A DNA stretch of 18,709 nucleotides. Origin: Gemmatimonadota bacterium (lineage in GTDB: Bacteria; Gemmatimonadota; Gemmatimonadetes; Gemmatimonadales; GWC2-71-9). The notes under the pieces are model-generated. The model was not told where the DNA came from. It saw nothing but the letters and a program-made list of their open reading frames with translations, and ran no database searches. The stretch lies in assembly GCA_003221005.1 (NCBI GenBank), contig QHTZ01000020.1, forward strand, positions 1 to 18,709, in the 5' to 3' direction. A program made the translations under genes and the position numbers. Below, one piece after another: positions 3,524 through 10,391 of the stretch (within the stretch, counting starts at the first letter, position 1; every line of letters starts with the position of its first letter).

Positions 3524-4770
<1,247 letters not shown>

Positions 4771-4774
<4 letters not shown>

Positions 4775-5424
4775 GCGGCTCCTCCCCGAGCCCCCGCTTC
4801 GTCGGCTCCTTTCCCCGCGCCGACGTCGCCCTCGCCGCACCGCTCCCCGAAATCGCCTTCCTCGGTCGCTCCAACGTCGGCAAGTCGAGCCTGCTCAACG
4901 CCGTGGCCGGGCAGCGAATCGCACGCACCTCCAGGACGCCCGGAAAGACCAGAGCGCTGAATGTGTTCGAAGTGCATCTGGGGACGGGGGACGAGGGACG
5001 AGGGACGAGTGAGCCCGCGCCCCACCCGTCCCCCGTCCCCCGTCCCTCGTCCCTCTATCTGATCGATCTCCCCGGCTACGGCTACGCGCGAGCGAGCCAC
5101 GCCGAGCGACAGGCGTTTCGCGGCCTTCTCGTGCACGTGCTCGAGCGGCCGCGGCTCGCGGGGGTCGTGTGGCTGCTCGACATCCGCCGCGACCTTTCGT
5201 CCGAGGACCTGGCGATGCAAGACACATTCGCGGCGGCGGGGACGCCGGTGCTCGCCGCGATCACGAAGGGTGACAAGTTGCGCCGTGGCCAGCGGCTCGT
5301 GCGTGCGGCCGCGTTGCGCGAAACGCTAGGGGTCGACACCGACCAGCTCATCCTGACGAGCGCCACGACAGGCGAGGGCATAGCGGAGCTGCGCGCGGCC
5401 GTCGCGGGCATAATAGGCGCGTGA
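4771..5424 (+). CDS. engB: Ribosome biogenesis GTPase EngB/YihA/YsxC (start uncertain: CTG 4771 or ATG 4708)
   Basis: G1 [10 protein letters not shown]2 SRTPGKT, G3 DLPGYG, G4 TKGD and G5 TSA. It lies immediately after clpX, a common arrangement. It carries a ~24-aa repeat-derived insertion before G3. Confidence 0.92.
4981..5053. repeat. Palindromic tandem-heptamer element (GGGACGR)x4 - 17 nt - (YCGTCCC)x4 inside engB
   Basis: Units gggacgg/gggacga/gggacga/gggacga at 4981-5008 and ccgtccc/ccgtccc/ccgtccc/tcgtccc at 5026-5053. Confidence 0.9.
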
Positions 5425-6575: not shown

Positions 6576-7205
6576 ATGACCTTGTACGCGATGAGAGGGG
6601 CGGCTAGGCGGTTAGGCGGTCAGTCGGTCTGGATGCTGCTGGTGATTCTGACCGCCAGACCGCCTGTCCGCCTGACCGCCCAAGATTCGCTCCCCGCCGG
6701 CTACGGCACCCTGCGGCGCGACGACATCGCGGTGCGCCTCACCACGGACCAGCTCGACATCCAGGTGCTTCCGCTCGACGAGCAGGTCATCCGGCTGCTC
6801 GCCCCGGACACCTACCGTTCGCTCAAGGACCTCAGCCGCACCCGACAGCCCGCGATCGACTCGCTCGCCGGGCAGGCGGGGGTCGCGCACCCCACGCTCG
6901 TGTTCGTCATGTTCTTCGGCCTCGTGCCGCAGGCGCGCTTCAGCCCCGAGGACTTGAACATCACGAGTCGCGGCCGCCTGTTCCGCCCCGTCGGCATGGT
7001 GCCCCTGTCACCGCGCTGGAACTCCTATCAGCTCGACGCGCGTGAGCAGGCGGTGGCGATTTACCTGTTCGACGAGGGCATCAGCTTCCGCGAGGACGTG
7101 ACGGTCAGCTATCAGAGCCTCGCCAACGGCGCCTGGTCGCGCTCGCTGCGCGCCCTCGATCGGGAGCGGGCCCGCGTGCTGGCGCGGGTGCGGGCGGGGC
7201 GATGA
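6576..7205 (+). CDS. Exported hypothetical protein (start could be 6576, 6591 or 6633)
   Basis: Fills the gap between the GT4 gene and the kinase, with an ATGA overlap with the kinase. It has GC3-rich codon usage and a signal-like N-terminus ending LTA-QDS. Confidence 0.75.
   Translation: MTLYAMRGAARRLGGQSVWMLLVILTARPPVRLTAQDSLPAGYGTLRRDDIAVRLTTDQLDIQVLPLDEQVIRLLAPDTYRSLKDLSRTRQPAIDSLAGQAGVAHPTLVFVMFFGLVPQARFSPEDLNITSRGRLFRPVGMVPLSPRWNSYQLDAREQAVAIYLFDEGISFREDVTVSYQSLANGAWSRSLRALDRERARVLARVRAGR
6599..6680. repeat. Palindromic tandem-octamer element (~GGCGGTYA)x4 - 18 nt - (~TGACCGCC)x4 encoding the signal-peptide region
   Basis: ggcggcta/ggcggtta/ggcggtca/gtcggtct at 6599-6630 and tgaccgcc/agaccgcc/tgtccgcc/tgaccgcc at 6649-6680. 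Confidence 0.85.
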
Positions 7206-9310: not shown

Positions 9311-9621
9311 GCCTCCGTCGGCCATCCGTACGTGCCGAGATTGACGGCCCCGCCGGGCGCGAACCGCACCCCCTCCCGCAGCAGGAGCGCACGCTGCACG
9401 ACGGCCGCGTGGTCGTGCGGAGAGAGCGAGATGCGGCCCGCCGCGTTCACGACGCGCCACCACGGCACGTCGCCCTCGTCGGGGAGGGCAGACAGGGCCC
9501 AGCCGACGGTGCGCGCGGCTCCCGGCCGCCCCGCCAGGCGGGCGACCACGCCGTAGGTCGCGACCCGCCCCTTCGGGATGTGGCGCACCACGCGGTAGAT
9601 CCGGCGATAGAAGGGGTTCAC
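9229..9621 (-). CDS. Alkyltransferase-like protein (Atl/YbaZ, MGMT family)
   Basis: [25 protein letters not shown] (Trp in place of the catalytic Cys of PCHRV) and [10 protein letters not shown]. The GTG start overlaps the hisF stop. Confidence 0.88.
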
Positions 9622-10391
9622 GGGCGCACCGGATAGCCGCGGCCTGCGAGGTACGCACGCGCCTCGGGGATCGTGGTGCCGCGGTAATGGAAGAGCGTCG
9701 CCGCCAGCACGCCGTGAGCCCCGGCGTCGAGCGCCTGGGCGAGATGCTCCAGCCTCCCGGCCCCTCCTGACGCGATCACGGGGATCCGGACCGCGGCCGC
9801 CACGGCTCGCGTGAGCGGAAGGTCGTAGCCGTCCTGAGTCCCGTCGGTATCCATCGAGGTCAGCAAGATCTCTCCGGCGCCCAGGTCCTCAACCCGCTTC
9901 GCCCACTCCACGGTGTCGACACCAGTCGGCTCCCGCCCACCGCGCACGATCACTTCCCACCCGTCCCCCGTCCCGCTTCCCCCTTCCCCCTTTTTTCTCG
10001 CATCAATCGCCGCGACGACGCACTGCCGTCCGAACTCGTCCGCCAGCCGCTTGGCGAGTGGCGGATCGCGCACCAGCGCGGTGTTCACCCCCACTTTATC
10101 GGCACCGGCGCGCAGCACCGCACGCGCATCCTCCACGCTCCGCACCCCGCCGCCCACGGTAAACGGAATGAACAGCCGGTCGGCCACCCGGCTCACGAGG
10201 TCGAGCAGCGTGCCCCGTGCTTCGTGGCTCGCGCTGATATCCAGCAGCACGAGCTCGTCCGCGCCGTCGGCGTCGTACCGCGTCGCCTGCTCCACCGGAT
10301 CGCCGGCGTCGCGCAGCGCCTCGAAATGCACCCCCTTCACCACCCGCCCCCCAGCCACGTCGAGGCAAGGGATCAGCCGTCGCGCTAGCAT
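9618..10391 (-). CDS. hisF: Imidazole glycerol phosphate synthase cyclase subunit
   Basis: [55 protein letters not shown] and PVIASGGAG. Confidence 0.97.
9956..9990. repeat. Single arm of the heptamer repeat family inside hisF
   Basis: ccgtccc/ccgtccc/gcttccc/ccttccc at 9961-9988. Positions 9956-9974 are identical over 19 nt to 5021-5039 in engB. It encodes [10 protein letters not shown]. Confidence 0.75.

Follow-up and report, generated by a model that had tools for sequence, protein, structure and literature searches.

A palindromic pair of heptamer arrays translated within EngB of a Gemmatimonadota bacterium belongs to a known class of paired repeat arrays

Arrays of heptamer repeats have been known in bacteria for decades and, to our knowledge, have no accepted origin or function. 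Here we report on a palindromic pair of such arrays, inserted in frame in the gene of the GTPase EngB, within an 18,709-nucleotide stretch of a Gemmatimonadota bacterium (contig QHTZ01000020.1 of assembly GCA_003221005.1), which is called the window below. Described arrays include the GGGGAYT repeats of Nostoc, which we take to be the classical short tandemly repeated repetitive (STRR) sequences (Mazel 1990). Rehm et al. (2015; PMC4692102) reported G-rich heptamers with the word GGGAATC in Xanthomonas and GGGGAYT in Nostoc PCC 7120, whose arrays prefer about four units and form 70-75 convergent pairs per genome, dispersed genome-wide. These arrays were depleted in coding DNA and often lay at most 50 bp from a stop codon or overlapped it, and G-quadruplex formation was offered as the explanation for the four-unit preference in Xanthomonas (PMC4692102). 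Another precedent is the Rickettsia palindromic element (RPE), a palindromic repeat that occurs in frame in unrelated housekeeping genes and encodes a peptide compatible with the protein fold (PMC10969869). Our literature search on STRR and heptanucleotide repeats, Gemmatimonadetes repeats and the small dispersed repeats of Nostoc returned no report on translated paired arrays or on Gemmatimonadota. Finally, the REP/REPIN-RAYT systems (repetitive extragenic palindromes, their doublets and the associated transposases), described by Bertels and Rainey in 2011, are said to consist of short polar units that occur as hairpin-forming inverted doublets and as many singlets.

The EngB element of the window measures 73 bp (4981-5053) and consists of an arm, a spacer and a second arm:
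4981..5008, + strand: G-rich arm (GGGACGR)x4, reading GGGACGG GGGACGA GGGACGA GGGACGA and translated as G T G D E G R G T
5009..5025, + strand: 17-nt spacer GTGAGCCCGCGCCCCAC, whose ends GTG...CAC lengthen the stem
5026..5053, + strand: C-rich arm (YCGTCCC)x4, the complement of the G-rich arm, reading CCGTCCC CCGTCCC CCGTCCC TCGTCCC and translated as P S P V P R P S
This anatomy had been given in a preliminary description made from the letters of the window, and it proved exact. Tandem Repeats Finder (TRF) assigned each arm a period of 7, 4.1 copies and 95% matches, and the arms were 88-95% complementary in an inverted-repeat scan (88% for repeat I1 and 95% for I3). A three-unit pattern with at most one mismatch matched the window four times, versus no match in each of 200 shuffles. 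Folding of 4971-5063 as single-stranded DNA gave -30.9 kcal/mol (z -5.2), and 0 of 200 shuffles folded equally well. Rfam returned no match in the window at gathering thresholds. An intrinsic terminator was also considered and rejected, as the hairpin sits within an open reading frame (ORF) and is followed by TCTATCTGATC. Logan contigs from four soil metagenomes of four studies contain the two arms and their spacer together with the left flank, with 0-1 differences; these contigs span 4873-5053, 4854-5052 or 4745-5054, and others start at 5025/5026 and continue. Because the element occurs in four metagenomes, it is not an artefact of this metagenome-assembled genome (MAG). The right junction was crossed by at least 31 nt on both sides in none of the listed Logan contigs, because contigs break within the repeated C-rich arm, and no row with a 7-nt gain or loss at the arrays was seen in the four metagenomes, whose contigs drop rare variants. 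Small indels near 5008-5021 and the joints 4890>5059 and 5014>5021 were seen in contigs as well; these have short sides and may stem from other loci or organisms. The EngB element is confirmed as real and far beyond chance.

The element is read in frame, between NVFEVHL and the sequence on the DLPGYG side, in the following gene:
4708..5424, + strand: EngB/YsxC ribosome-biogenesis GTPase ORF (TIGR03598 and 1sul matches; start codon uncertain)
4975..5049, + strand: extra loop, residues 90-114, in the beta2-beta3 turn, with no counterpart in solved YsxC/EngB
The first in-frame ATG of the ORF, at 4708, overlaps the clpX end. The assignment to EngB that had been proposed is borne out by a TIGR03598 score of 151.6 bits (cut-off 124.45), the match being split in two stretches by the insert. 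YsxC of B. subtilis (PDB 1sul) matched the product at an E value of 8.4e-29, with residues 44-89 of the query aligned to 21-67 of 1sul and residues 115-234 to 70-191. Residues 90-114 fall in the gap of this alignment and therefore stand in for a two-residue turn, which agrees with the earlier statement that the site is normally a short turn. The translation also contains what we take, from general knowledge, to be the G1, G3 and G4 (TKGDK) motifs. An AlphaFold2 model based on 61 EngB sequences reached a predicted local distance difference test score (pLDDT) of 92.1 and a predicted template modelling score (pTM) of 0.88. The insert, residues 63-86 of the model between strands 56-62 and 87-92, had no secondary structure and block pLDDT values of 70/59/78. 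As modelled, the insert forms a disordered surface loop in this essential GTPase, about 25 residues long and rich first in Gly/Arg/Asp and then in Pro/Ser, and the GTPase fold appears to tolerate it.

The window forms contig C77 in a genome of 2.79 Mb and 141 contigs with 69% G+C, from a soil Gemmatimonadales bacterium and named G000 below; G001, G002 and so on denote the genomes of relatives. The nearest named EngB loci come from Gemmatimonadales MAGs. In G000, exact runs of at least two GGGACGR/YCGTCCC units numbered 53, on 27 contigs. Using TRF and a pairing rule (complementary units with at most one mismatch, at most 150 nt apart), we identified 88 paired arrays built of a word in about four copies, a spacer and the complementary word in about four copies. 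Two random genomes from a third-order Markov model yielded 0 and 1, the detector being limited to 150 nt. Further copies in the genome, and peptide segments added to core proteins, had been anticipated, and both were found: in-frame paired arrays occur in EngB, MnmE, MiaA, DnaX and FtsK. The arrays use more than 25 words of 7, 8, 9 and 10 nt, such as GGGACGG, AATGCGG, CGGGATG, GGGAAAC, GACGGAAG, AGACGTC and GGGCGGTAAG, mostly in 3-5 copies per arm. About four units were seen also for words without G tracts (AATGCGG, AGACGTC), indicating that G-quadruplex formation cannot be the whole reason for the four-unit rule. The spacers of 0-144 nt were mutually unrelated and had no conserved core. Based on gene calls from our own codon-bias caller (2677 genes, 92% coding), 33 of the 88 pairs lay inside genes, 24 were intergenic and 31 overlapped gene ends; 13 pairs overlapped a predicted stop codon by 1-2 nt. 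With 92% of the genome coding, a count of just 33 pairs in genes indicates that the arrays are selected against in genes and tolerated in places. Among the relatives, we found 9 paired arrays in 400 kb of G001, 4 in 200 kb of G034, and 0 in 200 kb of G033, which belongs to another family and has 69% G+C. The density in G000, G001 and G034 was 20-30 pairs per Mb.

The paired arrays belong to the Xanthomonas/Nostoc class, as all features of that class that are testable here were found: head-to-tail G-rich units of 7 nt, about four units per array, many dispersed copies, convergent pairing, and depletion in coding DNA with concentration at gene ends, the EngB copy being part of an intragenic minority. 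The preliminary description had presented the element as a candidate for an undescribed system; this did not hold, since the same architecture is known from Xanthomonas and Nostoc (passages of PMC4692102). The arrays differ from the passages of Rehm et al. 2015 considered here in having more than 25 words of 7-10 nt in one genome, some of them unable to form a G-quadruplex, in having 33 of 88 pairs translated inside genes, where the supplements of that paper may list intragenic cases, and in having arms that bracket host coding segments, with orthologous sites that keep the layout and change the word. Bracketing of host codons, a four-unit rule without G-quadruplexes, the absence of a G.U bias and clade-wide conservation of sites all seem to go beyond those passages.

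We further compared the arrays with the other described systems. They resemble RPEs in their in-frame insertion into unrelated housekeeping genes. In the part of the source used here, RPEs measure about 150 bp, share a conserved consensus within each family and encode a peptide that is conserved, too (PMC10969869), whereas the EngB element has 73 bp and neither its core nor its peptide is conserved; moreover, the arms are tandem 7-10-mers, and the spacers are variable or host-derived. The preliminary description had also suggested a REP-like family or one like MITEs (transposable elements of the miniature inverted-repeat type). The arms are inverted repeats in form, as in MITEs, but the inner part is unrelated from copy to copy or is host coding DNA, and no target duplication was seen when the EngB boundaries were compared with empty sites, the same boundary codons being found in five genomes. 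A family inserted as one block is likewise not supported, since in MiaA, MnmE and an S9 peptidase the two arms enclose coding sequence that the host already had. The likeness to REP/REPIN-RAYT systems lies in the short polar units, the inverted doublets with many singlets and the presence of Y1 genes in the genome. Unlike those systems, a single array here is a direct tandem repeat and not self-complementary, the words are many and change between relatives, and the flanks of the Y1 genes hold REP-like sequences of another kind.

The paired arrays showed a strict polarity. Among adjacent arrays (period 7, 8 or 10, at most 150 nt apart), 69 same-word pairs were convergent, with the G-rich array first and the C-rich array second, versus 3 divergent pairs, two of which combined unrelated words and one of which was complementary at two mismatches. 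All 71 pairs with a clear G-C skew and arms within 150 nt were G-rich-first, and none was C-rich-first. As same-word arrays face each other on opposite strands, the DNA is able to form a long hairpin. Read on the purine-rich strand, 40 of 78 arrays of the GGGACGG type and 14 of 21 GGGAAAC arrays carried GT after their final unit, and the 5' side showed no preference. We then counted the mismatches between arms in 83 of the 88 pairs, leaving out five elements of a REP-like 8-mer family; the same 83 were used for the register counts below. G.U-type mismatches numbered 47 on the sense and 49 on the antisense strand (24 versus 25 inside genes), next to 149 transversions, at an arm-to-arm identity of 87%. 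The lack of a G.U bias indicates that pairing is not maintained by selection on RNA structure.

The history of the EngB insert was followed among relatives with the help of the upstream gene:
3524..4774, + strand: clpX, conserved neighbour upstream of engB, used in synteny and the species tree
EngB was detected in 40 of 41 relatives, and ClpX adjoins engB in 27 of the 30 relatives' loci. We mapped the DNA of the EngB site on a ClpX+EngB tree of 26 rows; rows of G020 are from an unpublished genome, and no result depends on them. The insert was restricted to one clade of 10 rows (support 100/99). All 16 rows outside the clade had -1 to +1 extra residues; that is, in the comparison of distant orthologues that had been proposed, the loop is missing throughout. 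Within the clade, the extra EngB residues and the arms were as follows:
G000: +23 residues, arms GGGACGR
G001: +25 residues, arms GGGAAGT GGGGAGT GGGACGA ... CGTCCC ACTCCCC ACTCCCC CTTCCC
G016: +20 residues, arms GGGATTG / CAATCCC
G009: +9 residues, arms GGGYTCG x4 and a single GAGCCCC
G003: +30 residues, arms degenerate GTGCGYM
G004: +10 residues
G017: +6 residues
G005: +3 residues
G020: +1 residue
G015: none
The boundary codons of the insert were identical in G000, G001, G016, G009 and G003, and the repeat words differed. Homologous inserts occupied this codon in six genomes besides G000. EngB proteins across the clade are merely 57-72% identical, and the insert peptides are unalike between genomes, as seen for the G000 peptide versus GKWGVGRRGKRSDASHRHVPLPTPP versus GDWGLGIRGHQSPIPNAESPT. 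The insert is shrunk or lost in G005, G015, G020, G017 and G004. The sisters G003 (+30) and G005 (+3, sharing GAGAAG; support 100/98) indicate a recent deletion. Most likely, the insert was gained once at the base of the clade of about ten genomes, and its words were then remodelled in each lineage, with some shrinkage and loss. A hot spot, in which the EngB turn was struck several times within the clade, is a less likely alternative to this single old event. On a wider scale, the spacing of G1 and G3 in 109 EngB loci of many phyla was 44-49 residues in 90 and at least 50 in 19. One of these 19 comes from another Gemmatimonadales lineage, which has a GTCGYGR x8 array (+35 residues) in the same EngB turn; a relative of that lineage has just a 16-nt palindrome, GGGTCGCGAGCGACCC, which would be either the array's seed or its collapsed remnant (loci L033:1495-2190 and L034:1495-2097).

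Other orthologous sites also kept their layout while the words changed. The window contains a second element of this kind:
6599..6680, + strand: second paired array, (GGCGGYTA)x4 + 19 nt + (CTGACCGC)x4, at the 5' end of ORF 6576..7205(+)
This array is translated as MTLYAMRGAARRLGGQSVWMLLVILTARPPVRLTAQDS. Judged by its sequence, the N-terminus of the ORF looks like a signal peptide, with a basic part in the G-rich arm, the hydrophobic MLLVIL in the spacer and TARPPVRLTAQ in the C-rich arm; the mature protein matched no NCBIfam family. At the same site G001 carries GGCGGGAA and G002 carries GGCGGTCW in the same layout. Two or three more proteins of G000 begin in a similar manner (C60:13766, C62:6232 and C17 near 14100). 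Six of the nine paired arrays in the 400 kb of G001 could be placed in G000 by both flanks. For five of the six, G000 has an element with a different word at the same site (G001/G000: GGGAAGA/GGGAAAC; TCAGCCG/CGGGATG; GGCGGGAA/GGGAAAC; AGGTGTC/AATGCGG; GGCGGGAA/degenerate GGCGGYTA). The remaining one is intergenic, and its site in G000 is empty (9-nt gap).

Similarly, the C-terminus of MiaA was found to be bracketed by arrays. In 18 relatives without paired arms, as judged by eye from the DNA, MiaA ends in ...YAKRQETWFRHQL-x-GPV-LxLDA...W...stop. In 10 genomes, namely G000, G002, G003, G005, G006, G009, G015, G016 and G017 of the EngB-insert clade plus G001, one array lies between RHQLR and VWxLDA and a complementary array follows ERW. 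The word is specific to each genome, and the pyrimidine-rich arm comes first in G015 and in G017/G001. The 80 nt between the arms encode the conserved C-terminal segment. In MnmE, the arms (C100:5627-5759 of G000) enclose the part with the TKAD (G4) motif, and in the S9 peptidase 128 nt of coding sequence lie between them. Arms placed around intact host codons in these three genes indicate that the elements are not hairpin or MITE-like insertions en bloc.

Based on these results, we lean towards the arrays being an old and tolerated product of passive slippage and template switching at the DNA level. Replication would create and alter the arrays, with no dedicated transposase at work and no selection on RNA or protein. 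Slippage would operate within arrays, and a microhomology-primed fold-back on the same strand, at the GT(G) tail of an array already present, would write its complementary arm downstream. Template switching onto arrays elsewhere in the genome would spread words between loci. We infer both this mechanism and the neutrality of the arrays, the EngB loop included. Processes of this kind are known as mutational mechanisms. Ogata and Miura reportedly observed 'hairpin elongation' of tandem repeats in vitro. In E. coli, template switching at quasipalindromes both creates inverted repeats and corrects them, according to the part of the source used here (PMC7202029), and short-range template switching yields short inverted copies in human genomes, as stated in the portion consulted of 10.1101/2021.11.26.470150. 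As proposed for the arrays, these processes need no transposase, act in replication, make or perfect inverted copies at short distance and lengthen repeats. Unlike the arrays, they are mutational mechanisms (in E. coli, yeast, human and in vitro) and not a genomic element family, and the link between the two is a proposed one.

Several observations weigh against this explanation. First, the convergent purine-first rule and the number of about four units, words without G tracts included, fit an enzyme of fixed polarity better. Second, the variant-unit order AATGCGG AATTCGG AATGTGG AATGCGG is common to C118:21538 and C66:23445, indicating that whole arms are copied between loci, and word families with such a shared order are not explained by local slippage alone. 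Third, arm-to-arm identity was 88% in the best register and 85-88% after a shift by one unit, with a clear register in just 7 of 83 pairs; as a variant unit of one arm has no mirror image in the other, no sign of recent copying from arm to arm is seen. Fourth, the MiaA arms of G005 and G006 were 90-97% identical per 100-nt window, versus 75-89% in the background, which argues against uniformly fast remodelling. The conserved tract of these two genomes extends over about 600 nt (L138/L137, alignment columns 2300-2900) and spans both MiaA arms, the segment between them and the first part of the following gene; this tract might have arisen by recombination, or it might reflect a constraint on the element at the DNA level. 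In addition, the MAG is 94% complete, so that an enzyme could be missed, the gene calls come from a crude caller of our own, and the TRF thresholds miss degenerate arms.

It is possible, though on the present evidence rather doubtful, that the arrays are non-autonomous mobile elements of a REPIN- or MITE-like kind, where a trans-acting enzyme, be it a RAYT/HUH nuclease, some other transposase or an as yet unknown nickase-polymerase, would recognise the array or hairpin and paste it with fixed polarity at staggered nicks, and EngB would have been struck by one such event. The multi-copy word families with a common variant-unit order, the polar GT tail, the 69 convergent pairs against 3 divergent ones and the intergenic element of G001 facing a 9-nt gap in G000 are all consistent with mobility. 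The EngB boundaries, on reading, showed no target duplication, and the unrelated spacers of 0-144 nt, which are host coding DNA in several genes, do not fit a mobile unit; more than 25 words would demand one very tolerant enzyme or many. Same-family clustering would fit mobility as well: on C66, C21, C120 and C38, elements of the same word family lie about one gene apart, with 11 pairs of a C-array followed by a G-array at 600-1200 nt, and this spacing suggests local spread. Also in line with mobility, G000 has two Y1_Tnp (RAYT/IS200-like) genes matching PF01797 (L111, C27:17898-18239; L112, C66:6398-6736), and a RAYT or Y1 gene flanked by arrays had been the expectation. Instead, a structured direct repeat of about 110 nt lies on both sides of the C27 gene, and CCCCGGGGCGNCGCCCCGGGG palindromes lie on the flanks of the C66 gene, one of them recurring within the next gene. 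Of the arrays, the closest to the C27 gene is a 10-mer pair at about 2.3-2.5 kb; a 9-mer array lies about 0.2 kb from the C66 gene, where the closest heptamer arrays are at about 2.2 kb. The Y1 genes with their own repeats are a separate REP system, and the RAYT link was rejected. The search for a parent insertion sequence covered PF01797 and PF00078; for a reverse transcriptase or telomerase-like source, RVT_1 (PF00078) gave 0 matches in the 94% complete genome.

We consider it unlikely that a polar DNA-writing activity, so far unknown, extends 3' ends at staggered nicks by about four purine-rich words on both strands, so that the two arrays face each other, and that both arms are rewritten repeatedly at fixed sites with the current words of the genome. 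Such writing would account for the 69:3 rule, the constant four units even of words unable to form a G-quadruplex, the bracketed host DNA and the conserved sites with replaced words. If true, it would represent a new templated insertion system that feeds peptide loops and signal-peptide-like N-termini into core proteins.

Slightly less likely again is that selection keeps the hairpin or the peptide for a function: a G-quadruplex or stem-loop might adjust the translation of engB or the stability of its mRNA, or the peptide might be a lineage-specific surface loop of EngB that plays a part at the ribosome. The EngB site stays occupied across a clade in which EngB is only 57-72% identical, and the MiaA arms of G005 and G006 are unusually conserved. 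As read from the sequence, each arm has four G5 tracts that could form a G-quadruplex, a structure that formed in vitro for the Xanthomonas and Nostoc words in the passages used here (PMC4692102). A kept function is at odds with an insert peptide that is not conserved, with its loss or shrinkage in five genomes of the clade and with a loop of low confidence and no structure in the AlphaFold2 model; the sense strand shows no G.U bias (47 versus 49), and about four units are found in words without G tracts, too. Finally, an artefact of assembly or binning, or else a low-complexity run arisen by chance, which a MAG of 141 contigs and the breaking of de Bruijn contigs at the C-rich arm might bring to mind, has a negligible probability given the EngB sequence in four metagenomes of four studies with 0-1 differences, the inserts in six other genomes, the 0 of 200 shuffles, the 0 and 1 pairs in random genomes and the 0 pairs in 200 kb of G033 at 69% G+C.

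Further elements of G000 were noted beside these. Within hisF, the window carries an array that has no partner:
9618..10391, - strand: hisF (TIGR00735, 340 bits, end-to-end match)
9960..9992, - strand: solo array of the GGGACGG/GGGAAGG word family without a partner arm, within hisF
This solo array is translated within a variable loop of HisF. Solo arrays make up about two thirds of the GGGACGG family, as counted from the listing. The paired arrays of dnaX (C21:39529-39654) and ftsK (C88:76691-76874) both lie in linker regions. Five of the 88 pairs form the REP-like 8-mer family, with 2-2.6 copies of the CGACGCCA/CGCTACGT type, a conserved spacer, the complement and then 'caac'; they are the sole C-rich-first pairs in G000 and are located as follows (CGTGGCGW...caac):
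C141:38366-38436
C49:11448-11519
C102:35469-35553
C120:84452-84521
C70:35278-35353

The EngB, MiaA and secreted-protein N-terminus sites, which are occupied across the clade while their words change, offer a clean comparative set. The bracketed and untouched codons, including those of a G4 motif, together with the absence of an RNA-type bias, set constraints on any mechanism, and these are testable in culturable carriers such as Xanthomonas. For annotation, such inserts split matches of hidden Markov models and should not be taken for frameshifts or domain boundaries. Altogether, these results show essential proteins gaining disordered loops from repeat DNA, be it selfish or accidental, well beyond Rickettsia.

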